Part shown: one piece after another, positions 974 to 26,928 of the stretch
How positions within the stretch are numbered: the stretch's first letter is position 1
How the letters are laid out: each line of letters starts with the position of its first letter
Origin: Schaalia odontolytica
GTDB lineage: Bacteria; Actinomycetota; Actinomycetes; Actinomycetales; Actinomycetaceae
Assembly: GCF_005696695.1 (NCBI RefSeq)
Contig: NZ_CP040006.1
Span: 2,070,001-2,102,000 of the forward strand
Reading direction: 5' to 3'
Length of the DNA: 32,000 nucleotides
Notes under the pieces: model-generated
Told to the model about the DNA's origin: nothing
The model's input: only the letters and a program-made list of their open reading frames with translations
Databases searched by the model: none
Program-made: the position numbers and the translations under genes

Positions 974-1714
974 TCAGCTTAGCGAAACTCCGCTCAGGCG
1001 TTCCTCCCGCAGCTCAGCGACACCCGGCACGTCGAGCGGCTCCAGCGTTGCGCCCGTAGCGCGCTCAAGCAGCAGGTCCGCCAGCTCGGGGTTACGAGCC
1101 AGAGCGGGACCGTGCATGTAGGTGGCGATGACGGACCCCTGAACGGCGCCGTCGTAGCGCACCTCGGGCGCTTCCTCTCCCTGGGGTGTGCCGTTTCCGA
1201 CGCCCGAGATGACGCGTCCCAGCGGGGAGGCATCGGGGCCGAGAACGGTGCCACCACCGTGGTTTTCGAAGCCGGTGAGGGTCTGGGTCAAGCCGTCGAG
1301 GACGGGCTCACAGACGAGCTCGCCGATCGCTCGGTGTCCCTGGGGGCGCGTCGTAATGTCGAGGACGCCCATGCCGGGAACGCGCACGCCGCGAGCATCC
1401 TCGTACCAGTGGCCGAGAACCTGCAGGGACGCGCAGATCGCGAGGAGGGGGCGCCCCGCGTCGAGGGCACGGGCGAGACCGGAGGTGCCGCGGAACTTGT
1501 CGGCCGCGAGTGCCTGAGCGGTATCTTCACCACCTCCGAGAGTGTAAATGTCCAGGCTGTCCGGGATCTCCTCGGTCAGGCCGACGTGGACGACCTCGGC
1601 ATCAATGCCGCGCCTGCGGGCACGCTCGGCGAGGATCAGCGCGTTGCCGCTGTCGCCGTAGGTGCCCAGGACCTCGGGCATGAGGACGCCGATTCGCAGC
1701 ATGGAGGTGCTCAT
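974..1714 (-). CDS. gatD: Lipid II isoglutaminyl synthase, glutamine amidotransferase subunit GatD (CobQ/CobB-type GATase)
   Basis: Translation MSTSMLRIGVLMPEVLGTYGDSGNALIL...LLAICASLQVL...ATYMHGPALARNP matches the GatD-type GATase layout (Cys nucleophile in ICASLQ, late His). The ATG at 1714 overlaps the murT stop (ATGA), and the gene is paired with murT. Confidence 0.85.
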   Translation of the reverse strand: MSTSMLRIGVLMPEVLGTYGDSGNALILAERARRRGIDAEVVHVGLTEEIPDSLDIYTLGGGEDTAQALAADKFRGTSGLARALDAGRPLLAICASLQVLGHWYEDARGVRVPGMGVLDITTRPQGHRAIGELVCEPVLDGLTQTLTGFENHGGGTVLGPDASPLGRVISGVGNGTPQGEEAPEVRYDGAVQGSVIATYMHGPALARNPELADLLLERATGATLEPLDVPGVAELREERLSGVSLS

Positions 1715-3021
1715 CGCGTGCCTTCCTTTCGATCGAGCAGGACCTTGAAGTCGCGCATGGCCGTGTAGTTGAGGAGCATCTCGACGCGGCCGGGCTCGCA
1801 CGCGGCGAGGGCGTCCATGGGCAGCGGAACGAGGTCGCAGTGGACGCCCGCATATTCGAGGCGCACGGCCAGGTCGGCGCCGCGCTCACCGCAGGCTACG
1901 ACGCGGCGGCCGGGCTGCTTGACGGCGGAAAAGTCGACGTCCCACAGCCAGGAGAGGTCCTGGCCGTCGGGCACCTGGCCGTTGACACCGATGACAACCT
2001 GGTCGACGCGCGGGTCGATCATCGTCATAGCTTCCTGCCATCCGGCGGGGTTCTTGGCGAGCATGAGGCGCGCACTGCGTCCGTTGACATCGTGGACGGA
2101 GTAGCGTCCCGCGACTTCGGTGACGGCGCTGACGGCCGCGGCGGCAGCAGCGGGGTCAATGCCCATCGCGACGGCGGCGGCGACGGCCTGCGCGGCATTG
2201 CCAAGGTTGGCTCGCCCGGGAAGCTTCAGTTCGAGGGGGACGCTGACGCCGTCGGGTCCACGCAGCGTCGCACGCGGCCCCTCGGGGGCCAGCTCGACGT
2301 CCTCGAGCCACCACTGAGGCTGAGGACGGCTGCTGAGCTCAGGGAGTTCCTCGCCGTCGAAGGCGGGGATCAGGTGCCAATCCTCGCCGGAGCGGACGAC
2401 GCGGCCACCGCGCGGGTATGCAGCGGAGTCCCCTCCCCAACCGGCGCCTGCGGCCACCCACACGACGTTCGGATTGTCGGCAGCAGCGGAAACGATCAGC
2501 GGGTCGTCGCAGTTCGCAACGACGACGGCACCCGGGTGGGCCGAGGCCCCGTCACGCAGGCGACGCTCAACGGAGCCGATTTCGCCGACGCGGTCGAGCT
2601 GATCGCGCGAGAGATTCAGGTACACGAAGACCGATGGATTGACGTCGGCGGCGACAGCGGGCACGTGCATCTCGTCGACCTCGAGGGCCGCACGCGTCGC
2701 CTCCTTACCCTGCATGAGGGCCGTAATGACGCCCGAGGTCATGTTGTCGCCATTGATATTGGAGGCCACGGGTCCGGCGCTTTCGAGGGCCGCCCGCACC
2801 ATGCGGGTCGTCGTCGACTTTCCGTTCGTGCCGGTCACGATAACGGAGGAGTAGGGGGCTGCCAGCTCCGAAAGGAACTTCGGCGAGATGCGCATGGCAA
2901 CCTCACCGCCGATCATGCCGCCGGATCCGCGTCCGAGGGCCCGGGAGGCGAAGCGGGCGGCACCGCCGGCCGCTTTGGCCACGCGCGAGCGCACCGAGAG
3001 GTGATGCGAAGATTTCGTCAT
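1711..3021 (-). CDS. murT: Lipid II isoglutaminyl synthase, Mur-ligase-like subunit MurT
   Basis: Mur-ligase P-loop VIVTGTNGKSTTT and a 436-aa length. It sits immediately upstream of, and is translationally coupled to, the GatD-like gene. Confidence 0.88.
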   Translation of the reverse strand: MTKSSHHLSVRSRVAKAAGGAARFASRALGRGSGGMIGGEVAMRISPKFLSELAAPYSSVIVTGTNGKSTTTRMVRAALESAGPVASNINGDNMTSGVITALMQGKEATRAALEVDEMHVPAVAADVNPSVFVYLNLSRDQLDRVGEIGSVERRLRDGASAHPGAVVVANCDDPLIVSAAADNPNVVWVAAGAGWGGDSAAYPRGGRVVRSGEDWHLIPAFDGEELPELSSRPQPQWWLEDVELAPEGPRATLRGPDGVSVPLELKLPGRANLGNAAQAVAAAVAMGIDPAAAAAAVSAVTEVAGRYSVHDVNGRSARLMLAKNPAGWQEAMTMIDPRVDQVVIGVNGQVPDGQDLSWLWDVDFSAVKQPGRRVVACGERGADLAVRLEYAGVHCDLVPLPMDALAACEPGRVEMLLNYTAMRDFKVLLDRKEGTR

Positions 3022-5232: not shown

Positions 5233-5889
5233 TCATTCAGGGTTGTTCACCAGTACCTTCGCGGCGCGCACAACGCGTTCGCCACGGCGGTAGCCGCTCG
5301 CGAGGACCTGCCCGATGACGGGATGGTCGACGTCCGGGCTGGTGGTCGCCATGAGGGCGTCGTGCAGGGCGGGATCGAAGTCGTCGCCCGGAGCGCCATA
5401 GCGCTCGAGCTCGAAACGCGTCTTGAGCGTCTCCTCGAGCTTCGTGGCGATCGACGCGAAGGGGCCGTCCTCCAGGTCGCCGTGCGCGCGGGCGGCGGCG
5501 ATGTCGTCGAGGACGCTGATGAGCGACTCGATGACCTCATCCTGGCCCGCGGTCTTGTGGCCGGGGATGGCCTCCTTGGAGCGGCGCACATAGTTGGCGT
5601 ACTCCTGGCCCTGGTTATACAGCTCCGCGTTGGCGCGGGCCAGCTGGTCTTCGACGCTCGCGATGCGCTCGAGGGCCTTGGCGAGGTCGGAGTCCTCGAT
5701 CTGCTCCTCGAAGGCGCTCATGTCGTCGGTCGAACCCTCGGACGAGGCTTGGGCAGCGTCATCCGCGCCGGGTGCGGTCTCGTTGTTCTCGGCCGCCTGG
5801 CCGGCCGGGGCCGACTCGAAGGAGTCGGCCCCGGCGACGTTGGCGTCTTCGTTGGGCGCCGAGAAACCGTTGGTTTCTTCGGTGCTCAC
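5233..5889 (-). CDS. grpE: Nucleotide exchange factor GrpE
   Basis: Acidic N-terminus, a coiled region, then a GrpE-type C-terminus (...[24 protein letters not shown]). The GTG start overlaps the dnaK stop (GTGA). It lies between dnaK and dnaJ. Confidence 0.92.
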
Positions 5890-7721
5890 TTGTTGTCCTC
5901 GTCAACGATCTCGGCGTCCACGACGTCGTCCTGCGCGGGCGCGGACTGGGCGCCGGCCTCGTCGGCCTGCTGCTTGGCGTAGATCTCCTGGCCGATCTTC
6001 ATGCCGGACTCGGACAGGGTCGCCATGGCGGTCTTCACGGCCTCGATGTCGTCACCCTTGAGGGCTTCCTTGACGGCGTCGACGTCCTTCTGGACGGCCT
6101 CGCGGGTCTCCTCGGAGATCTTGTCGGCCTCGTCCTTGAGCAGCTTCTCCGTCGCGTAGACGGTCTGCTCAGCCTGGTTGCGGGTGTCGGCCTCTTCGCG
6201 GCGCTTCTTGTCCTCGGCGGCGTGCTCCTCAGCCTCGCGCACCATGCGGTCGATGTCCTCCTTGGGCAGGGACGAACCGCCGGTGATCGTCACCGACTGC
6301 TCCTTGCCGGTGCCACGATCCTTCGCGGAGACGTGAACGATGCCGTTCGCGTCGATGTCGAAGGTGACCTCGATCTGCGGCACGCCGCGGGGGGCCGGGG
6401 CGATGCCGGACAGCTCGAAGGTGCCGAGCAGCTTGTTGTCACGGGCGAACTCACGCTCACCCTGGTAGACCTGGATGAGCACGGAGGGCTGGCCGTCCTC
6501 GGCGGTGGAGAAGATCTCCGAGGCCTTGGTCGGGATGGCCGTGTTGCGGTCGATGAGCTTGGTCATGACGCCGCCCTTGGTCTCGATGCCGAGCGACAGC
6601 GGGGTCACGTCGATGAGCAGGACGTCCTTGCGGTCACCCTGGATGACGCCGGCCTGCAGGGCGGCGCCCACGGCGACGACCTCATCGGGGTTGACGCCCT
6701 TGTTGGGCTCGCGACCGCCGGTCAGCTCCTTGACGACCTCGGTGACAGCGGGCATACGGGTGGAGCCGCCGACGAGCACGACGTGGTCGATCTCGGAGAC
6801 GGTCACGCCGGCCTCGGCCATGACATCGCGGAAGGGCTTCTTGGTGCGCTCGAGCAGGTCGGAGGTGAGCTCCTCGAACTTGGCGCGCGTGAGGGACTCA
6901 TCCAGGTGGATGGGGCCATCGGCGGTCATGGACAGGTACTGCAGCGAGATGTTCGTGGAGGTCGCGGAGGACAGCTCCTTCTTCGCCTGCTCAGCGGCTT
7001 CCTTCAGGCGCTGGAGGGCGACCGCGTCCTTGGACAGGTCGGCGCCGGTCTTAGCCTTGACCTGGTCGATCAGCCAGTTGACGATGCGCTGATCCCAGTC
7101 ATCGCCACCCAGGTTGTTGTCGCCGGAGGTGGCGCGCACCTGGATGGTGGAGAAGCCGTCGTCATCCTTGCCCACCTCGAGGAGGGACACGTCGAAGGTG
7201 CCGCCACCGAGGTCGAAGACCAGGATGAGCTCATCTTCCTTGCCCTTTTCGAGGCCGTAGGCCAGGGCCGCGGCGGTGGGCTCGTTGACGATGCGCTCGA
7301 CCTTCAGGCCGGCGATCTGACCGGCATCCTTGGTGGCCTGGCGCTGAGCGTCGTTGAAGTAGGCGGGGACGGTGATGACGGCCTCGGTGACGGGCTCACC
7401 CAGGTAGGCCTCGGCGTCAGCCTTCAGCTTCATGAGGATGCGCGCGGAGATTTCCTGCGCGGTGTACTTCTTGCCGTCGATCTCCGTGGTCCAGTCGGTG
7501 CCCATGTGGCGCTTGACGGAGGAGATGGTGCGGTCGACGTTGGTGACGGCCTGGCGCTTGGCGATCTCGCCAACCAGGACCTCACCGGTCTTGGAGAAGG
7601 CGACGACCGAGGGGGTCGTGCGAGCGCCTTCGGCGTTGGGGATGATAGTGGGCTCGCCGCCTTCGAGGACGGCGATAGCGGAGTTGGTGGTACCGAGGTC
7701 GATGCCGACTGCACGTGCCAT
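5886..7721 (-). CDS. dnaK: Molecular chaperone DnaK (Hsp70)
   Basis: 611 aa with hallmark Hsp70 motifs [19 protein letters not shown] and [10 protein letters not shown]. Confidence 0.98.
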
Positions 7722-18622: not shown

Positions 18623-18684
18623 ATTGCCTGCGTTATGAACCTCACGGATTGGTTACACTGGTGCCAGAAACTGAAAGGACGGTC

Positions 18685-19176
18685 ATGCCTCAACCAGCAC
18701 CCGGATGGTACCCCGACCCCGCAGGAAGCCAGCGCCTTCGCTGGTGGAACGGCGGCGAGTGGACCGAACAATTCCACGATATGCCACAGCAGGAAGTATC
18801 CGCCGGGCAGCGGTGGCCCGCAGACCCGGCGGCGGGGCAGTACGTGCCCACCCAGTCGCAGGCTCCCACCGTTTCCTCGGACCCCTACAACCCGGCAGGC
18901 ACCGCTCCACAGCTGGGTAACGCCGAAGCGGGATCGCAGCACGCAGGAGACGCCGCACCGAAGAGCGGTCGCGGATGGGTCATCGGCGCTGTTGTCTCTG
19001 CCCTCCTCATGGTCGTTTTCTTCGGCACGATGGTGTACGCGGGTATCCAGCTGCGCGCTCAGAACGTGGAGTGGCGCGACGTGCAGGATCAGCGAAACTC
19101 TACAAAGATCAGCCTCGACCACAAGCAGGATGAACTCAACGATGTGAAGGAAGAACTCGAGGAGGCACAGAAGTGA
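18685..19176 (+). CDS. S1: small membrane protein with an N-terminal DUF2510-like motif, Pro/Gln-rich linker, one TM and a C-terminal charged helix
   Basis: AAAGGA lies 5 nt before the ATG at 18685. MPQPAPGWYPDPAGSQRLRWWNGGEWT matches the GWYxDP...RWWDGxxWT signature. TM is WVIGAVVSALLMVVFFGTMVYAGI. The tail is ...ISLDHKQDELNDVKEELEEAQK. The stop overlaps the L1 start (GTGA). Confidence 0.7.
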   Translation: MPQPAPGWYPDPAGSQRLRWWNGGEWTEQFHDMPQQEVSAGQRWPADPAAGQYVPTQSQAPTVSSDPYNPAGTAPQLGNAEAGSQHAGDAAPKSGRGWVIGAVVSALLMVVFFGTMVYAGIQLRAQNVEWRDVQDQRNSTKISLDHKQDELNDVKEELEEAQK

Positions 19177-19889
19177 GCAACGGATTCCAGCCCCAGGCGA
19201 AGAAGCCCTCCAGCCTTCCTAAGATCCTGACGATTATCTGCTCAGTTCTCGCAATCCTCTTCCTCCTTGTCAGCACCAGCATGTTCGTCAGCGCTCGCTC
19301 GAAGGCGCAGGAGATTGAGGAAGGGCGCGCCGAGATCCAGTCCGCGGACGCTAAGACCGTGGAAATCGACAGCGAAATCACATCCACTAAGGAGCAGATC
19401 GCCGCGGCCAAGGGGAAGAAAGAGGCTCAGAAGTGGTGCGACGACGTCACCCGCGAGAATGCAACGGAGACGAAGCTTCGCAGTCAGGGAAGCGCCCTCA
19501 AGTCGATGAACCAACCCACGCGCGACGCAGTCGATAATCTCTGCTCCCAGAAAAAGGCCTTCATTGAAGCTTTCGCGCAAGACGCAAAAGCAAATACCGA
19601 AATGATCACCCCCTCGAGCCTCGATTGCCAGAAAGACGGCAAGACGATGACGATTACGGCCACTGTCACAATTACTGCTCCCTCGCTCCTGGCGTATGGC
19701 AGCATGGACGTTACTTACAACGTGTTCGCGGCCGATCACGCGATCACCAAATCCGATACTCCGCTCGGGACAGCAACCGCCACCGTTCCTTCGAGCGGGT
19801 CGGGTCCCCTGTCCACATCCATGCCGATCTCGGGCAACGAGACGCACTGCTCGATCGAACCGGTGAGTATCTGGCCCACCGGTCTGTAA
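19173..19889 (+). CDS. L1: N-terminally anchored protein (TM, helix, then beta-rich four-Cys ectodomain)
   Basis: GTG at 19173 with GAGGAGG 8 nt upstream. TM is ILTIICSVLAILFLLVSTSMFV. The charged helix runs up to KEAQKWCDDVTRENA. Cysteines occur at WCDD, NLCSQ, LDCQK and THCSI. The C-terminus is SIWPTGL. Paralogous to L2 and L3. Confidence 0.7.
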   Translation: MSNGFQPQAKKPSSLPKILTIICSVLAILFLLVSTSMFVSARSKAQEIEEGRAEIQSADAKTVEIDSEITSTKEQIAAAKGKKEAQKWCDDVTRENATETKLRSQGSALKSMNQPTRDAVDNLCSQKKAFIEAFAQDAKANTEMITPSSLDCQKDGKTMTITATVTITAPSLLAYGSMDVTYNVFAADHAITKSDTPLGTATATVPSSGSGPLSTSMPISGNETHCSIEPVSIWPTGL

Positions 19890-19934
19890 GCCCCACATCC
19901 ACAGCGATCTCCCGACACGAGAGCAGGAACCCCG

Positions 19935-20498
19935 ATGAGTGAACCCGCGGAAGGCTGGTACGCCGATCCCAGTGGCGCAAATCAACTGCGCTGGTGGGAC
20001 GGACACGCGTGGACGGACTACGTCGAGCCGTACGAGGCACCGGCGCCCTCTCCTCAGGACGTTGAGGTCGCAATTCCGGCGGTGGACGAGGCCTTCCCGG
20101 CTTCGTCCACCGAGGAGTGGGCCGCCACTTCCGCCGGTACACCTATCCCCATGCCCGAGGCCTCCTTCCCGCAGGAGGTCACCCCAGCCTCGTCGGTAGC
20201 GGAGGCACCGGTCGCACCGATTCCGATGCCCGGCTCCCCCGTCGATGAAAAAGACAGCGAGGAGGCGGATGCACCCGAGAAGAGCGGAACGCTCAAGTGG
20301 GTTCTCGCATGCGCAGCATCGTGGGTGCTCGTCGCGGTGTTCATTACCGTGCTCGTCATCGCCTGGTCGCACCTGGGGGCCAGCGGCCGCATCCAGGAGG
20401 ACGCGAAGAACCGCGCCGAGACCGCCCAGAATGAGCTCGACACGGCCCGCTCGACGCTCGAGTCCATCAACCAGCAGCTCCAGGAGGCCACCAAGTGA
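19935..20498 (+). CDS. S2: paralog of S1 (DUF2510-like motif, acidic/Pro-rich linker, TM, helix)
   Basis: MSEPAEGWYADPSGANQLRWWDGHAWT. TM is WVLACAASWVLVAVFITVLVIAW. The tail is ...NELDTARSTLESINQQLQEATK. The stop overlaps the L2 start (GTGA). Confidence 0.72.
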   Translation: MSEPAEGWYADPSGANQLRWWDGHAWTDYVEPYEAPAPSPQDVEVAIPAVDEAFPASSTEEWAATSAGTPIPMPEASFPQEVTPASSVAEAPVAPIPMPGSPVDEKDSEEADAPEKSGTLKWVLACAASWVLVAVFITVLVIAWSHLGASGRIQEDAKNRAETAQNELDTARSTLESINQQLQEATK

Positions 20499-21187
20499 GC
20501 GCTCCCGCACCCCTGCGTGCCGCGACCGTCGCGGGCGCCATCCTCGCCACGGCGTTCATCGTCCTCTCAGCCATCGTCGGGGGCATCAACGCGTGGCGCA
20601 CGCATTCTGCATCCACGTACGAGGCACAGGCTGAGCAGGCCCAGTCCGACAAGGCCACGGTCGATCAGCAGATTACGGAGGCAAAGGCCGCGCTGGATGC
20701 TGCCACCGTACGCAAGGACGCCGAGGCCTGGTGCGATTCGATCACGCGCGAATCCGCCGCGTCGATTCGAGACTCGCTCAAGACCTACGATTCGGCGACT
20801 CAGGCCACCAAGGACGCGATCCACGAACAGTGCGCGGCCAAGGAGACCCTCGCGCAGGTCTACCGCACCAACAAGGACGCTGACTTCACCATCGCGGTGG
20901 GCGAATGCACAACTGACCAGGTGACGACCACGGTGAACGGAACGCTCACCCTCAAGGACTCTTCCCAGATCACGTCGCTGGGCACACTCGATGTGGAGAT
21001 CAACGGGTTTACCGCGGACAAGGGGAAGAACCCCAGCCCCGGCTCGCCGTACCAGGGCACGACGACGATCACTCTGACACCCGGCTCGCCCGCCACTTTT
21101 ACGCTGTCGATTCCCTACGATCCCGCGATGACCGATAAGACCGAGTGCGGCGCGACGATGACCAGCTGGTGGCCCTCCAACCTGTGA
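20495..21187 (+). CDS. L2: paralog of L1 (TM, helix, four-Cys ectodomain)
   Basis: TM is VAGAILATAFIVLSAIVGGI. The helix runs up to RKDAEAWCDSITRESA. Cysteines occur at WCDS, EQCAA, GECTT and TECGA. The C-terminus is SWWPSNL. Confidence 0.72.
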   Translation: MSAPAPLRAATVAGAILATAFIVLSAIVGGINAWRTHSASTYEAQAEQAQSDKATVDQQITEAKAALDAATVRKDAEAWCDSITRESAASIRDSLKTYDSATQATKDAIHEQCAAKETLAQVYRTNKDADFTIAVGECTTDQVTTTVNGTLTLKDSSQITSLGTLDVEINGFTADKGKNPSPGSPYQGTTTITLTPGSPATFTLSIPYDPAMTDKTECGATMTSWWPSNL

Positions 21188-21271
21188 TGCACGGTGAATC
21201 CCGTCACCGCAGCAAATCCAATTTTTTCAACTCGCATAGAATTGGGGAGACACAGTGAAAGGAGTCTCCCC

Positions 21272-21592
21272 GTGAGCACCCCCACCCCCGGCCTGCCCGA
21301 GAATCCGGCTGGCTCCCCCATTCCTCCCGCCGGTCAGGTTCCGGCTGCGCCGAGACCCGCGGTCGCGGCGGCCACGCCGACGTTCACCCCGCTCACCGCC
21401 CCGCGCCCGCGCGCTACGGGCGGGCAGATCGCGATCGCCGTCATCACGTCGGTCCTCGTCGTCCTCTTTGCCATTACGACCCTCATGGCTGCCGGCATCT
21501 ACTCCCTGAAGAGCAAGGACCTCACCGAGACCCAGGAAGAGCTCACCACCGTCCAGCAGGAGCTTCAGGAAGCGCAGGAGGCCACCAAGTGA
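21272..21592 (+). CDS. S3: truncated S-type paralog (Pro-rich N-terminus without the GWYxDP/RWWDG motif, TM, helix)
   Basis: GTG at 21272 is preceded by GAAAGGAG. TM is IAIAVITSVLVVLFAITTLMAAGI. The tail is KDLTETQEELTTVQQELQEAQEATK. The stop overlaps the L3 start (GTGA). The upstream part of ORF 21194..21592 is judged untranslated. Confidence 0.6.
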   Translation: MSTPTPGLPENPAGSPIPPAGQVPAAPRPAVAAATPTFTPLTAPRPRATGGQIAIAVITSVLVVLFAITTLMAAGIYSLKSKDLTETQEELTTVQQELQEAQEATK

Positions 21593-22302
21593 GTGACAAC
21601 AACATCCCCACGCCCGAGGCAACCGCCCCGGCTCCCGTGACGGTCGCGACCAAGGCCCCGAAGAGCAAGGGACTGTCGATCTACAACCGCGTCGCGCTCG
21701 TCCTCCTCCTCGTCCTCGTCATCGCGACGACCACCCTGTTCACCTTCGCCGTCCAGAAGACAAAGGCGGAGAAGGACATGAAGGATGAGATCCAGACAAT
21801 CAAGGAGCAGACCGCCGCCCTCGCTGCCCCGGCCTGGTGCGAGCAGGTGACCCCGGACAACGTCGACAAGGTCGACGAGCTGTACTCCAAGTACGACAGG
21901 ATGTCCTCGGAAGCTCAGGAATCCGTGAAGAAGGAATGCAAGGATCGGGTTGACGCCGTCCAGCTGCTGAAGTTCCAGGACGCCGAGGACGCATTCAAGG
22001 TTGATTCTACCTGCGAGCTGGACGACGCTCAGACGACTCTGCACTGCACCGCGGACGTCTCCCCCGCCAGCGACACGGTGAAGACCAAGCTCGAAGCTTT
22101 CCAGACGACCGACCTGACGTTCGAGATCCTGTTCGACGATTCGATGTTTGTTGTCGGTACCCCCGACCACGTCACAGAAAACGTCACAACCGCGACGATG
22201 ACGAAGGGCGAGAAGGTGTCCCTCGAGTTCACGACACCCTACGACCCAAGCTGGGGCGCCCACTACAAGGTCAAGGTCACGAAGTACTTCCCGCACGCGT
22301 GA
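21589..22302 (+). CDS. L3: divergent paralog of L1/L2 (TM, helix, four-Cys ectodomain with a different Cys spacing)
   Basis: TM is VALVLLLVLVIATTTLFTFAV. The helix runs up to AAPAWCEQVTPDNV. Cysteines occur at WCEQ, KECKD, STCEL and LHCTA. Confidence 0.68.
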   Translation: MSDNNIPTPEATAPAPVTVATKAPKSKGLSIYNRVALVLLLVLVIATTTLFTFAVQKTKAEKDMKDEIQTIKEQTAALAAPAWCEQVTPDNVDKVDELYSKYDRMSSEAQESVKKECKDRVDAVQLLKFQDAEDAFKVDSTCELDDAQTTLHCTADVSPASDTVKTKLEAFQTTDLTFEILFDDSMFVVGTPDHVTENVTTATMTKGEKVSLEFTTPYDPSWGAHYKVKVTKYFPHA

Positions 22303-22327
22303 GCCAGGCACTCTGATCGAACGCACA

Positions 22328-22359
22328 GGTCCCGTCGCCCAATTCCGGGCGGCGGGACC
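22328..22359 (+). terminator. Stem-loop terminator after L3
   Basis: 13-bp stem GGTCCCGTCGCCC / GGGCGGCGGGACC (one G-U pair) with a 6-nt loop, 26 nt after the L3 stop and between convergent genes. Confidence 0.55.
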
Positions 22360-22430
22360 ACGTGCATTCACAAGAGGCAGGCGCGCGGTCCACATCGCCA
22401 CGTAGCCCCGCCACGGCCTCACGCAAGCGC

Positions 22431-22862: not shown

Positions 22863-25586
22863 CTAGTTGATGCGGCGGATGCGCTTCTGGTGGCGGGGCG
22901 TCAGGATAATTGCGACGAGGGCGCACAGGATCGGCATGCCGATCAGCATGCCCAGCAGGGCTCCCCAAGGAACGATGGGGCGCAGCGTCGTGGTCAGCGT
23001 CGGGAAGATCCCCGAATTCGCGAAGGTGATGACGGCCAGCACGCCCACAACGAGGCCGGAGAGCACAGCCGTCGGAATCGCGTTGAGCGCAAGCACCACG
23101 CCCTGCCACGTGGTGACGTGGCGGCGCATCGAGGGAGCGGCACCGATTGCATCAAGGGTGTCGAGGTCCGGGCGCATATCCGAGGAAGACAGTGCCACCA
23201 CGAGGGCAACCGTCGCCGCAGCCGCGACGACAGCAATCAGGGCGGCAACGTAGGGCAGAACCAGCGACCGCATCGTCGGGGCGATCACCTGTGCGGAGGC
23301 ACCGGGGACCTGGCGCGCAATCGTCGTCTGGAAGGTGGGCGCGTCCACCGGATTCACCGGCTTCTCGACGGTGAGGAGCTCGCCGAGGGGCACGGCGCGC
23401 AGGCCGAGGGCTTCGGAGGCCTGCGGGGACAACACCATGACGTTGATACGCGTGAGGGGCGAGGCCGGGAAGGTCATCGTCCTCTGCACGAGGGCGTCCG
23501 GCAGGTCATCATCGGAGGCACCGGCGGCCTTGGCGGCAGCAATCGCCGACATGTCGAGGCTGCGCAGGTCCGCCTGGCCGGCGCCGTTAATCAGCTTCGG
23601 ATCGGGCACGAGGACGCCACCGGCGTTCAGGGTGGCGATCGCTCGGACCATGTCGTCCTCGTTCAGGTAGCCGGCCTCGCGCAGGTAGGTGCCGTCATCG
23701 ACGATGTAGGCGACGTCGATCTCCGCCATCGTTCCCATGTCATCGCGCATCGTGAGCGTCGACTTGTCGACGGGGTTCACGGCCTCGACCATGGTCTCCG
23801 GGCCACCTGGGCCACTGTTCCACGCCATGCCGTTCATGATGGCGCTGGAGGTGACCGTGCGCTCCCCATCGACGACCTGCTGGGCCGACTGAAGAAGGTT
23901 GCGGGTGCGCGTCACCGAGTCGGTCTTATCGACCGTCGAGAGGAAGACCTGCCCACGCTGCCCGGCGTGCGGGCGCGAGTTCCAGCCGGCCTCGTTCGAC
24001 GAGGACAGGGTGATGAGCAGGCCGCAGGCGACGAACACGGTCGTCAGGATCGAGGCCATGGCGGGGAACGTGCGGTGGCCGTTACGCACGGCGTCGCGAA
24101 GCGCCAGGCGCATGCTCATCGACGCGCGACGATTGGGCGCACGCCAGCGGGTGAAGATGTAGGGGATCGACCCGATGAGGCCGGCCTCGAGCAGACCGAC
24201 ACCAACGACGAGGGCGAGCACCCACCCGCGCCAGGCGGCAATCCCCAGCAGCGGGAGTCCGGCCAGCAGCGCCAGGGGGTAGATCATGCGACGACGCACG
24301 AGGCGGGAGGGCTCCCACACGCGCCCGCCGATGACTGCGGACGTGTTGATGTGCGACGAGGTGTGCGCCGGCGACACGGACGCCATGAGGGACAGCAGGA
24401 TCGGCAGGAGCACCGACAGGGCCAGCGGCCACCACGGCACGATGCCGATGCCGAGGCCCGACCAGATGCCGATGCCCACCATGCCGCAGGCGGACAGCAC
24501 GGCGGAGACAAGCCCCGAGTACAGGCCGATGACGAGGCCGTGGGCGATCGTCAGGCGACGACCGTCGGACTGGTCGCCGCCGTTGGCGACGATCATGGCT
24601 GCCGTGCGCATGACCGATCGCTGGGCGACGGTGTAGAGCGGCGAGATGAGCAGGATCATCTCGGTGAGGATGAGGAGGATGCCTGCGACCAGCAGAAGGT
24701 ACTGCCAGGGGTTGGTAGCACGATTGTTTTGGGGGCCCTCGTACTGAGCGAACTGGGCGGGCAGAGCCGAAACGTCCGGCGGATCAGCGAGTACCTGTCG
24801 CGACACGACGGAGAATCCCGACTGGTTGATCTGACGAATATGGTCCCAGGTCACCGGAGTCGGGCCGGTGACGAACCAGGCGGTCTGCGTGCGTCCCGCC
24901 ACCGCGAGACGGTCAATGTCGATCGTGCCGTCACCGATGATCGCCCGATTCATACCGGGAATGATCTCGTCGATGACGACGCTTCCCGTGAGCGCCTGAG
25001 TGGTGCGATCCTTGGCGACAGTCAGCGACAGCGTGAGCGTATCGCCCACCTCGGCCTTGAGTGCGCGCGCGACGTCGTCCGAAATGACGGCGTGGTTCGC
25101 GGCGAGCGCGCCGCTCTTTCCACCCGCATTCACGCGTGGAGCATCCAGCGTGGCCGTCTGGGTGCCTGAGTCAACCGTGTAGCCCGTTCCATCCTGCGTC
25201 GTGAGGTGGAGCTGGTAGAGGGTGTCGACGGCGATCAGTTGGTCCCCCGCCGGCACCCAGTCGGTGAGGGTGCTCTGGGTAACCGTCACTTCCTCGTCAG
25301 AGGCCGTCTTCGATAGAAAGTCGGCGGTGATATCTTGCTCGATGGCCGTCGACGAGCGGTGCAGGGTGACCGCCTGGACGTCGGAACGGTGGCCGAGCCA
25401 CGACGCGGCCTGGTAGCGCTGGGAGGTCGTCACGTCCCAGAACGTGATCGCGCCGATCGCGATAACGATCGGCAGCGAGATGAGAAAAACCGCCGTCAGC
25501 GTGCGCCCCAGGCTTTGGCGCGCATCACGAGAGGCGATGCGGAGTACTACTCCCCATCGCCTCATTCGTGTGTTGAGTCGACTCAT
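22863..25586 (-). CDS. ABC transporter permease, FtsX/MacB-type with two FtsX modules (907 aa)
   Basis: N-terminal ASRDARQSLGRTLTAVFLISLPI is typical of FtsX-like permeases. Two clusters of TM helices are separated by large extracytoplasmic regions. The ATG overlaps the ATPase stop by 1 nt (TGATG). Confidence 0.82.
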   Translation of the reverse strand: MSRLNTRMRRWGVVLRIASRDARQSLGRTLTAVFLISLPIVIAIGAITFWDVTTSQRYQAASWLGHRSDVQAVTLHRSSTAIEQDITADFLSKTASDEEVTVTQSTLTDWVPAGDQLIAVDTLYQLHLTTQDGTGYTVDSGTQTATLDAPRVNAGGKSGALAANHAVISDDVARALKAEVGDTLTLSLTVAKDRTTQALTGSVVIDEIIPGMNRAIIGDGTIDIDRLAVAGRTQTAWFVTGPTPVTWDHIRQINQSGFSVVSRQVLADPPDVSALPAQFAQYEGPQNNRATNPWQYLLLVAGILLILTEMILLISPLYTVAQRSVMRTAAMIVANGGDQSDGRRLTIAHGLVIGLYSGLVSAVLSACGMVGIGIWSGLGIGIVPWWPLALSVLLPILLSLMASVSPAHTSSHINTSAVIGGRVWEPSRLVRRRMIYPLALLAGLPLLGIAAWRGWVLALVVGVGLLEAGLIGSIPYIFTRWRAPNRRASMSMRLALRDAVRNGHRTFPAMASILTTVFVACGLLITLSSSNEAGWNSRPHAGQRGQVFLSTVDKTDSVTRTRNLLQSAQQVVDGERTVTSSAIMNGMAWNSGPGGPETMVEAVNPVDKSTLTMRDDMGTMAEIDVAYIVDDGTYLREAGYLNEDDMVRAIATLNAGGVLVPDPKLINGAGQADLRSLDMSAIAAAKAAGASDDDLPDALVQRTMTFPASPLTRINVMVLSPQASEALGLRAVPLGELLTVEKPVNPVDAPTFQTTIARQVPGASAQVIAPTMRSLVLPYVAALIAVVAAAATVALVVALSSSDMRPDLDTLDAIGAAPSMRRHVTTWQGVVLALNAIPTAVLSGLVVGVLAVITFANSGIFPTLTTTLRPIVPWGALLGMLIGMPILCALVAIILTPRHQKRIRRIN

Positions 25587-26323
25587 CAGATCCTTGGTGC
25601 AGTGTCAGCCAGCAGATCCCTCAGCGAGTCTCCGCGCGAGCGGTCGACGATGCGACCGTCGCGGAGGAAGACTGTGCGGTCCGCCCATGCGGCCATTCGG
25701 GCCTCATGAGTAACGAGGATACCGGCTGCACCCGCATCAATGTGGTCACGCAACACCAACATGATCTGGTCGCTCGTGTGCGAGTCCAGCGCGCCCGTCG
25801 GCTCATCCGCAAGAATGACCGAGCGGTTACCCACGAGGCCTCGGGCGATCGCGATGCGCTGACGCTGACCACCCGAGAGACGCTCGGGGAAGCGATCCGC
25901 GAGCTCGGCGACGCCGACCTCTTCGAGGGCAGCCATGGCGGCCTCGCGCACCTTCGACGGGCTAACCCCGTCCAGTTGCAGCGGCATCTCAACGTTTTCG
26001 AGGGCCGACAGGGACGGGATCAGGTTGTAGTCCTGGAAGACGTAACCGATGGAACGGCGACGCACCTCAGCACGGTGAGCCGCATCCATCGTGGCCATAT
26101 CGACGCCGTTGATGAAGACACTTCCGTGCGTCGGACGCTCCAGTCCGCCAGCGATCGACAGCAGGGTCGACTTGCCGGATCCAGAGGGGCCCATAACAGC
26201 GAGAAGCTCGCCGGGGGCGACCTCAAGGTCGATCCCGTCGAGCGCTCTCACTCGGACGCCGTCGGCGCCGAACTCATGTCCGACACCCGCCATCCTGATC
26301 GGTAGCGGCACAGGCTGGCTCAT
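25586..26323 (-). CDS. ABC transporter ATP-binding protein (MacB/LolD-type)
   Basis: Walker A GPSGSGKST, Q-loop YVFQDY, signature LSGGQRQR, Walker B ILADEPTGALD and H-loop VTHE. The start is placed at the ATG at 26323, which overlaps the padR stop (ATGA). Confidence 0.92.
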   Translation of the reverse strand: MSQPVPLPIRMAGVGHEFGADGVRVRALDGIDLEVAPGELLAVMGPSGSGKSTLLSIAGGLERPTHGSVFINGVDMATMDAAHRAEVRRRSIGYVFQDYNLIPSLSALENVEMPLQLDGVSPSKVREAAMAALEEVGVAELADRFPERLSGGQRQRIAIARGLVGNRSVILADEPTGALDSHTSDQIMLVLRDHIDAGAAGILVTHEARMAAWADRTVFLRDGRIVDRSRGDSLRDLLADTAPRI

Positions 26324-26928
26324 CGCACCCCGGCACGCTCCGAAATGCCGGCTTCCGTCTGAGCCCAGTTCATCGAGCGACCCTTCGCAGCAGCGAAGGC
26401 GGCGCGACGAGCGGCCTCGGAAACAGCACCGGACTCGATGTGATCGAGCCAGTTGAGCTCGGCCTCGAGGTCGAAGATGTGACGCTCCAGGATGAGCTTC
26501 CACGCGAGCTCACCCTCGTCGGCCGAAGCCTTCAGGCGGGTGACGTCACGCAGGGAGCCCAGGGTCGAGCGACGCTGGGTCTGGATCATGGCCTCGACGT
26601 CGACCGTGGGGTCAGCGGCGGCCACGGCGAGCTTCATGACGAGCTCATCGCGTTCGGGGTGTTCGCGGGGAACGGGGGTGGACCACCAGGCGTTGAGGAC
26701 GTCGCGACCGGCATCAGTCAGCTCGAAGACCTCGGAATCACGGCCGGCGTTGGTCTCAGCGTGAGACACAACCTGGCCGTCGCGCTCGAGGCGCTGCATC
26801 GTCTGGTAGACCTGGCCGATATTCAGCGGCCATGCTCCGCACGTCTGCTCCTCGAACATCTGCTTCAGGCGGTAGACACCGGCGGGCTGCTGCGCAACAA
26901 GCGCCAGCAGGGCATTGCGAACCGACAT
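26320..26928 (-). CDS. PadR-family transcriptional regulator (with C-terminal dimerisation/effector domain)
   Basis: Winged-helix region ALLALVAQQPAGVYRLKQMFEE...NIGQVYQTMQRLERDGQV. It is the first gene of the ABC operon. Confidence 0.82.
   Translation of the reverse strand: MSVRNALLALVAQQPAGVYRLKQMFEEQTCGAWPLNIGQVYQTMQRLERDGQVVSHAETNAGRDSEVFELTDAGRDVLNAWWSTPVPREHPERDELVMKLAVAAADPTVDVEAMIQTQRRSTLGSLRDVTRLKASADEGELAWKLILERHIFDLEAELNWLDHIESGAVSEAARRAAFAAAKGRSMNWAQTEAGISERAGVR

Follow-up and report, generated by a model that had tools for sequence, protein, structure and literature searches.

What do three diverged copies of the same two-gene membrane cassette contribute to an actinobacterial cell when they lie side by side on its chromosome? 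This question is raised by a stretch of 32,000 nucleotides (nt) of Schaalia odontolytica DNA (assembly GCF_005696695.1, contig NZ_CP040006.1, positions 2,070,001 to 2,102,000 of the forward strand), hereafter the window, whose first letter is position 1. Six open reading frames (ORFs) on its plus strand, between 18685 and 22302, form the pairs S1-L1, S2-L2 and S3-L3. An earlier reading of this DNA, here called the original prediction, had placed the genes at these coordinates, which a listing of ORFs confirmed. Our analysis indicates that each of the three copies probably forms a two-subunit complex spanning the membrane, and translationally coupled synthesis of S and L is the best-supported reading of the gene junctions. 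The copies differ in how they vary among related species. The best-supported reading of this variation is that the extracytoplasmic domain (ectodomain) of L1, and in part that of L3, looks like a recognition surface on which diversifying or balancing pressure has acted.

Gene anatomy and coupling of the S-L pairs

Within each pair, the stop codon of S overlaps the start codon of L in the tetranucleotide GTGA, and the pairs are separated by only 45 and 84 bp, both as originally described. S1 (18685-19176) begins with ATG and has 163 amino acids (aa) in public gene calls, which are favoured over a possible alternative TTG start at 18649; L1 follows at 19173-19889. The second pair consists of S2 (19935-20498) and L2 (20495-21187), the conserved paralogue of the set, and the third of S3 (21272-21592), which has a GTG start behind GAAAGGAG in a frame open from 21194, and L3 (21589-22302). 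The Shine-Dalgarno (SD) sequence recorded for S1 is cgAGGAGGcacagaaGTG, and GAAAGGA(G) precedes the starts of both S1 and S3. For each L, an AGGAGG SD sits within the final codons of the preceding S gene (19155-19176, 20477-20498 and 21571-21592; ..AGGAGGcc/acaNaaGTGA). The C-terminal E-E-A-x-K of S is thus constrained at the level of both protein and RNA, because the SD of L is embedded there.

The S proteins had been described as DUF2510-like, which holds for S1 (PF10708, 46.2 bits, E 3.8e-12) and S2 (41.5 bits, E 1.1e-10), membership being judged by the Pfam gathering score of 24 bits and the motif GWYxDP...RWWDGxxWT. Both are members of this named but unstudied domain family. In S1, the domain (aa 6-37, nt 18700-18795) is followed by a disordered linker rich in Pro and Ala, a transmembrane (TM) segment at aa 97-123 (nt 18973-19053), assigned by position and flank charges, and an extracytoplasmic helix of 40 aa. 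S2 has the same order, with DUF2510 at aa 7-38 (nt 19953-20048), a disordered linker of about 75 aa, a TM segment at aa 122-151 (nt 20298-20387) and a C-terminal helix. Its AlphaFold2 (AF2) model contains a three-stranded beta unit at aa 7-32, with a predicted local distance difference test (pLDDT) score of about 80, low confidence (pLDDT < 50) over 43-115, and helices at 119-148 (TM) and 154-186.

The description fails for S3, which has no Pfam match to DUF2510 at E <= 1 with either start codon and keeps only a degenerate relic, PGLPENPAGS, aligned to PGWYPDPAGS of S1. A TM segment at aa 48-79 (nt 21413-21508) and a short helix of 27 aa make up the rest of the protein. The S3 orthologue in the S. 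meyeri-type locus L017 retains the domain; the S protein of locus L019 also lacks it, and the pair is kept. The three S paralogues share 33-35% pairwise identity. Among solved structures, S2 has no sequence match in the PDB, and the best Foldseek match of its model reaches E = 3. Our literature search found no paper that mentions DUF2510 or PF10708, nor does DUF2510 appear in the supplements of the transposon-sequencing paper on strain XH001; to our knowledge, it has no partner or activity on record.

Small relatives of S occur in phages. Mycobacterium phage Roary gp29 (locus L025, 2501-2731) and 17 further actinophage records encode a 76-aa "membrane protein" that consists of DUF2510 and a single TM segment. 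The gene lies directly 3' of the serine integrase gene of temperate Fromanvirus mycobacteriophages and overlaps it. Genes at this integrase-adjacent position are often expressed from the prophage, and the location of this minimal S-like protein suggests the same for it.

The L proteins are strongly diverged, as had been noted by eye, with pairwise identities of 21-30%. L1 has a short, basic N-terminus, a TM segment at aa 18-41 (nt 19224-19295), a helical stalk at aa 42-87 and an ectodomain at aa 88-238 (nt 19434-19886). The corresponding parts are TM aa 9-34 and ectodomain aa 79-230 (nt 20729-21184) in L2, and TM aa 35-56, a stalk of 26 aa and ectodomain aa 83-237 (nt 21835-22299) in L3. Each of the 13 L proteins examined has exactly four Cys C-terminal to its TM segment; S has none. 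The predicted four-Cys ectodomain is borne out in number, and the placement varies: L1 (Cys 89/124/152/226) and L2 (80/113/138/218) have the fourth Cys near the C-terminus, and L3 (84/117/142/153) has it in the second beta-strand, to which it has moved in the L3 subfamily. At the C-terminus of L3, a YFPHA motif replaces WWPxxL.

The AF2 model of L1, built from an alignment of 33 sequences, has pLDDT > 90 over aa 80-238. It places a TM helix first, then a long helix (47-91) that enters the domain, two helices at 99-111 and 114-137, and a six-strand beta-sandwich at 145-235. The L ectodomain is hence predicted to be a helical and beta-sandwich unit with four Cys, and is probably disulfide-bonded. 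Charges flanking the TM segments (L, N-terminal flanks +32/-2 and C-terminal flanks +30/-37; S, +32/-15 and +32/-40) favour a topology in which both proteins have the N-terminus inside and the C-terminus outside.

A natural fusion links the two proteins. P0247, of 317 aa, joins DUF2510 (E 5e-9), a linker, one TM segment, a helix and the L ectodomain (L profile positions 2-161) in one chain. It is found on three contigs, and on one of them, of 7.1 kb, it lies between an Asp-Al_Ex gene and an S4-domain gene, in the place that S and L occupy elsewhere. Such a fusion is evidence of the Rosetta-stone type that the S cytoplasmic module and the L ectodomain function within a single assembly. A derived origin is probable, since the fused gene nests among single-pair L genes in the tree, and recombination between S and L, whose TM/helix segments are similar, could have produced it. 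Two metagenome-assembled genomes (MAGs) also carry S and L as one continuous ORF (L011 5689-6711, S3-L3, 340 aa; L013 4145-5398, 417 aa). Unlike the one-TM fusion P0247, both probably reflect assembly errors of a single base where the two genes overlap in GTGA.

The similarity of the two segments is visible in profile searches. The L profile is colinear with the basic juxtamembrane motif, TM segment and helix of S1, S2 and S3, at about 20 bits each, and among all ORFs of at least 60 aa in 15 sequences it matched S and L proteins only. The lengths of the S helix and the L stalk also follow each other within pairs, with 40/46 residues in S1/L1, 36/44 in S2/L2 and 27/26 in S3/L3. From these features we infer that S and L pair physically through their TM and helix segments. 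The observation that S ends where the L ectodomain begins was considered as proof of common descent; it is weakened by the finding that the last codons of S hold the SD of L.

Distribution, chromosomal site and copy number

The family has a narrow distribution. An exhaustive HMMER search with the L ectodomain profile returned 52 cluster representatives at E <= 1e-3 among 1.84 billion proteins, a few of them spurious; the large repetitive proteins P0226, P0256 and P0264 and the out-of-frame translation P0249 were set aside as such. Named members, all annotated "hypothetical protein", come from the S. odontolytica group, S. meyeri, Schaalia sp. 19OD2882, lx-100, lx-260 and one Actinomycetaceae MAG, so that the S-L family appears confined to Schaalia sensu lato. 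Our scan for loci used close relatives of L3 and thus reached only Schaalia/Pauljensenia-type genomes; more distant loci were retrieved through exact-protein look-ups.

Gene order is conserved throughout this range. Among 14 Schaalia/Pauljensenia-type loci from GTDB species genomes, every sufficiently long one has the order S1-L1-S2-L2-S3-L3. The adjacency of S and L, for which the original prediction had proposed a survey, was found in every relative read, with S directly 5' of L, so that the lack of synteny which would have spoken against the cassette is not seen. The two genes overlap in GTGA or ATGA in 13 loci, the sole exception being L023, with a gap of 47 nt; the distant loci L017-L022 and L024 have S directly upstream with a GTGA or ATGA overlap. 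Judged by this gene order, the ancestral unit is the S-L pair, joined by its overlap of 4 nt.

In all loci read but L023, the site is the same, between a divergent Asp-Al_Ex/TrkA_C transporter gene and an S4-domain gene, a set of PadR, ABC and FtsX-like or MMPL genes, or both. No integrase, transposase or tRNA gene lies nearby, and the 32-kb window contains no mobile-element or tRNA genes. By these comparisons the locus has a fixed position and is inherited vertically. Four lineages have a single pair, a MAG has two that are unlinked, and the S. odontolytica and S. meyeri groups have three. The suggestion that copy number might vary among close relatives was not borne out, as no such variation was seen and the triplication predates the split between S. 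odontolytica and S. meyeri. In neighbour-joining trees, the copies of the window and of L017 form three 1:1 clades for L and S alike, which indicates that the triplication is old and involved whole pairs.

In the Actinomycetaceae MAG (L018 4121-7281), the pair is much enlarged on the cytoplasmic side: the 627-aa S and the 426-aa L each have a long, acidic N-terminal region of low complexity rich in Gly, Asp and Phe. The TM segment, helix and ectodomain of this pair are otherwise normal, and the same genome holds a second, unlinked pair of the L023 type. Directly 3' of L, two single-pair genomes have an unannotated ORF of 359-364 aa (L018 7302-8396, L019 6877-7956), for which the Pfam matches are sub-threshold only (CDCA, E 0.0025-0.0062); it could be a further lineage-specific component.

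Transcription of the cluster was also considered. The original prediction of a six-gene operon stands as to six adjacent plus-strand genes, which may or may not share a single transcript. The spacer between L2 and S3 (21188-21271, plus strand, 84 bp) is A+T-rich, contains TAGAAT and ends in the SD of S3, and may hold an internal promoter. A scan for consensus promoters found no site anywhere in the cluster, this spacer included. After L3, at 22328-22359, the strong hairpin noted earlier is confirmed by its fold energy, with a perfect 13-bp G+C stem and a 6-nt loop. The surrounding 81 nt (22300-22380) fold at -45.4 kcal/mol (z = -6.6), and none of 200 shuffled sequences folded equally well. The hairpin lacks a U-tract; shared by L3 and the S4-domain gene, which converge on it, it is probably a bidirectional terminator.

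Beyond the terminator, a PadR regulator, an ABC ATPase and a 907-aa FtsX-like permease are encoded on the minus strand (22863-26928), and these genes adjoin the cluster in most relatives. Resistant S. odontolytica from a host-evolution study with the epibiont TM7x is reported to carry mutations in transporters and a PadR regulator (PMC6275545). Elsewhere in the window (974-3021 and 5886-7721, minus strand), the context is one of housekeeping genes: those for a MurT/GatD-like pair (a Mur ligase with MurT_C, and GATase_3), DnaK (HSP70), an alpha-L-fucosidase, an M18 aminopeptidase and an aldo-keto reductase.

Sequence variation among the three pairs

The window was compared with eight related species, in which the neighbouring Asp-Al_Ex, S4-domain and FtsX-like proteins are 96-99% identical to those of the window. 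Against this background the six proteins diverge to very different degrees. Amino-acid identity is 92-98% for L2, 81-96% for S2 and 81-93% for S3, and falls to 68-86% for the L3 ectodomain, 68-85% for S1 and 43-100% for the L1 ectodomain. The earlier intuition that the cluster resembles surface or recognition modules is supported by this hypervariability of the L1 ectodomain between highly conserved flanks.

A nucleotide identity scan located the variation in a discrete block (19400-19890, plus strand) that corresponds to the coding segment of the L1 ectodomain. Identity within the block is 49-75% against loci L005, L009 and L012, and 86-92% in the adjacent 100-bp bins. As identity is back at 86-91% in the next 100-bp bin, the borders of the block coincide with the start of the ectodomain and the stop codon of L1. 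Within it, the synonymous divergence (dS) rises to 1.1-1.3, compared with about 0.25 in neighbouring segments, and the ratio of nonsynonymous to synonymous divergence (dN/dS) is 0.36-0.59. The raised dS suggests that old L1 alleles were brought in by recombination, and that the block did not arise merely by fast local change.

Individual loci illustrate such exchange. In L001, the L1 ectodomain is 100% identical to that of the window (dS 0.07) beside an S1 that is only 83% identical (dS 0.30), which makes this locus, by its sequence, a mosaic. The opposite is seen in L004, where S1 and the TM/helix segments of L1 diverge together (about 71% nucleotide identity) and the ectodomain retains 91% amino-acid identity. 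The 120 L1 orthologues among the matches listed fall into four to five ectodomain classes when grouped at 70-80% identity, the most distant two sharing 36%, and the 90 L3 orthologues among the matches listed form one class at 80%; both sets consist of the best-scoring relatives listed and are not a population sample.

All six genes have dN/dS < 1 against the eight species, as estimated pairwise and by the Nei-Gojobori method only. Together with their high G+C at third codon positions and the gene order kept in relatives, this supports the six ORFs as real genes. The ratio is 0.05-0.12 for the L2 ectodomain and 0.24-0.56 for the L3 ectodomain, and pair 2 looks like a conserved core function under strong purifying selection. 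The three pairs of the original description are not equivalent: pair 2 is under purifying selection, the L1 ectodomain is hypervariable and S3 lacks DUF2510.

Base composition sets the first pair apart as well. The G+C content at third codon positions (GC3) is 0.73-0.87 across the six genes, high as in the genes of this genome generally, and amounts to 0.73-0.74 in S1 and L1, compared with 0.80-0.87 in the other four genes and 0.84-0.85 in flanking genes. The segment 19001-20000 has the lowest G+C of the 32-kb window (0.58, compared with 0.61-0.73 elsewhere). The low G+C and GC3 of pair 1 are consistent with imported or differently constrained DNA.

Function and resemblance to known systems

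The reading that we favour, tentatively, is that an S-L pair is a two-chain envelope complex and that the ectodomain of L1, partly also that of L3, is recognised by a fast-evolving external partner. S and L, each crossing the membrane once and made in a coupled manner, would lie next to each other, held together by their TM segments and the adjoining extracytoplasmic helices, in a parallel helical stalk. On the outside, L would place its disulfide-stabilised helices and beta-sandwich some nanometres above the membrane, in the zone of the wall; on the inside, S would add a small DUF2510 module of three strands, tethered by a long and flexible linker. Together they would resemble a receptor or connector split over two chains, of which one Schaalia lineage has the same parts in a single chain at the same site. 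The pair would have been triplicated before S. odontolytica and S. meyeri separated, after which the copies diverged, pair 2 keeping the basal function. Deeply diverged alleles of the L1 ectodomain, and to a lesser degree of that of L3, would then have been swapped by recombination at the domain borders. Candidate partners include a phage or epibiont adhesin, a bacteriocin and a host antibody.

Several observations weigh against this reading. The dN/dS of the L1 ectodomain lies below 1 and the GC3 of S1 and L1 is lowered, and relaxed constraint together with import from a diverged lineage could be the source of the L1 pattern. A stalk of about 45 residues would place the ectodomain inside the Gram-positive wall layer, where partners outside might be unable to reach it. 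S3 and the S protein of L019 do without DUF2510, which is thus dispensable there. The signs of contact between S and L are indirect, namely the universal adjacency and overlap, the natural fusion and the colinear architecture. hhalign aligned the S and L families with a probability of 94.8 over 73 columns, at an E-value that is pairwise and without database control, and a likeness of TM segments and amphipathic helices can be compositional. The correlation of helix lengths over 12 pairs (Pearson r = 0.71; Spearman 0.46, p = 0.13) depends largely on the short pair 3 and on related pairs, and is only suggestive. Nor does the EEAxK motif of S speak independently for homology with L, since the embedded SD constrains it.

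Part of this evidence would suit a housekeeping envelope scaffold, in which lineage-specific bitopic partners with TM and coiled-coil segments serve wall synthesis, division or cell separation in the manner of FtsB/FtsL/DivIC, and the variability of L1 reflects relaxed constraint after duplication. The fixed, vertically inherited site among housekeeping genes fits such a role, as do the low dN/dS of L2, the ratios below 1 everywhere and weak matches of S3 to FtsL models (E 0.006-0.04). We nevertheless consider it unlikely, because these matches reach 14-16 bits, compared with cut-offs of 42-55, and cover the TM-plus-helix part only, because the family is absent outside Schaalia sensu lato, and because the divergence of L1 is a sharply bounded block of high dS with an identical ectodomain allele in a diverged background (L001), rather than diffuse relaxation. 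If, on the other hand, the likeness of the TM and helix segments is compositional, S and L might be independent proteins that are co-transcribed and form no complex, the fused gene being accidental. To this we give very little credence, given that the adjacency is universal, that the start/stop overlap is conserved across lineages even at 16-37% protein identity, that stalk lengths match within pairs, and that the fusion occurs on three contigs at the orthologous site.

The split layout, with one domain outside, a stalk, and another domain inside on its flexible linker, and the existence of a single-chain form, would also agree with a transmembrane signalling device, in which L senses a cue from the wall or the environment and the DUF2510 of S relays it inside, like a sensor with an adaptor or an anti-sigma partner. 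This seems distinctly unlikely to us: no sigma factor, kinase or response regulator lies in or next to the cluster in any locus read, the nearby PadR gene travels with the ABC and FtsX-like genes, DUF2510 was lost from two S proteins whose pairs were kept, and no partner or activity is known for this domain. The original prediction had also likened the cluster to defence-type modules, and phage defence or superinfection exclusion, with the pairs blocking phage DNA entry or triggering abortive infection, would draw on the diverged paralogues, the one hypervariable ectodomain and the DUF2510-plus-TM proteins next to the integrase of temperate mycobacteriophages. The defence part of that claim finds no support, and we regard this role as highly improbable. 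No PADLOC model matches at E < 0.004, with weak matches all in the helical region, no L homologue occurs among 50,697 phage records, the cluster encodes no enzyme or effector domain, and the locus does not sit in an island or any mobile-element context but keeps its position in all loci read except L023.

The two-chain complex with a variable recognition surface, the reading that we favour, may be carried further. In a more specific form, which we hold to be very doubtful, the pair would be a split transmembrane receptor of a kind not recognised before and particular to Schaalia, L1 alleles would set the susceptibility of strains to a partner that penetrates the envelope, with siphophage tail tips or TM7 epibionts as candidates, and DUF2510 would translate the contact into an intracellular response. 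The Saccharibacterium TM7x has S. odontolytica as its host (PMC6275545). For the one studied Schaalia phage, LC001, the evidence on its receptor points to a wall polysaccharide and not to the S-L locus (PMC11032452). The species is abundant among oral commensals and serves as model host for the Saccharibacteria that were cultivated first; few host determinants of epibiont and phage specificity have been established (PMC6275545, PMC11032452).

A genus-specific module with deep, recombining ectodomain alleles would be a concrete candidate for such a determinant. The pair, its triplication and its fused form also offer a clean case of the relation between single-chain and two-chain membrane proteins, and DUF2510, widespread but unstudied, gains a defined genetic partner. 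Orphan membrane families are common, and if the variability of L1 is neutral, this would be one of them, of modest interest.

Comparison with known systems places the module outside the kinds described so far. In scans of Pfam, NCBIfam, PADLOC and PHROGs with the six proteins and with distant relatives, DUF2510 was the only family to emerge. The original prediction recognised no characterised family for L, and indeed L had no match above the curated cut-offs of Pfam and NCBIfam and none of significance in PADLOC, PHROGs or the PDB. The best matches below cut-off, DUF4307 (15.3 bits, cut-off 27) and Chordopox_A33R (17.4, cut-off 22.5), cover the TM/helix region only. A precomputed PF28006.1 tag is attached to one of the 218 relatives listed (P0018, an L1 orthologue with 67% identity) and is absent from the other 217. 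The L profile reached a best E of 0.085 against PDB sequences, and the L1 model gave no Foldseek match in the PDB at E <= 1e-3 and a single borderline, geometrically poor one among viral models. Its best Foldseek matches, to units that combine a helical bundle with an Ig-like or FN3-like sandwich (Sec63-type units of Brr2 and the small DUF1425/YcfL-like sandwich 3o0l), share the order of helices followed by a beta-sandwich (E >= 2.5e-3, root-mean-square deviation mostly 9-12 Å, identity 8-13%; query TM-score <= 0.28, a value lowered by the long TM/stalk helix in the full-length query). On these models the likeness is a generic fold resemblance and not membership.

Among membrane systems, FtsB/FtsL (DivIC) come close to the proposed S-L stalk, as two small single-pass proteins with the N-terminus inside and an extracytoplasmic helix right after the TM segment. 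They differ in that L has a Cys-containing globular domain of 150 aa, the S-L family is limited to one genus, triplicated and hypervariable in one copy, and the genes do not lie in a division/cell-wall (dcw) gene cluster; membership in FtsL/DivIC was rejected, with S3 scoring 13.9-16.4 bits against NCBIfam cut-offs of 42-55 and a transporter and an S4-domain gene as neighbours. Rz-like i-spanins have a comparable layout of an N-terminal TM segment and a long helical periplasmic region. The S and L genes, in contrast, are chromosomal, belong to a Gram-positive organism that has no outer membrane, and have neither a lipoprotein partner nor, for L, a phage homologue; the PHROGs matches to spanins (E 0.0015-0.013) are not significant, and phage context and a lipoprotein gene are lacking. 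Known anti-phage systems (PADLOC-DB 2.0) were likewise set aside, with a best match to PbeC at E 0.0044 in the coiled-coil region only and none for S2. With the bitopic DUF2510 proteins of Actinobacteria and actinophages, S1 and S2 share the N-terminal domain, the linker and one TM segment. What sets S apart is a conserved helix outside the membrane, a partner gene that always follows downstream and, in S3, the loss of the domain.

The L family and the S-L cassette match nothing described in the libraries searched, and the module falls outside known kinds, since membership in the nearest families was tested and not found. Alongside FtsB/FtsL-type heterodimers, polymorphic envelope receptors are its nearest functional analogy. 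A further parallel is a general pattern of population genetics, that of polymorphic surface loci, in which deep allele classes are exchanged by recombination. Unlike these loci, L1 has a dN/dS below 1. What it shares with them is a set of discrete allele classes, a raised dS limited to one block, breakpoints at the borders of a domain, and alleles common to diverged backgrounds.

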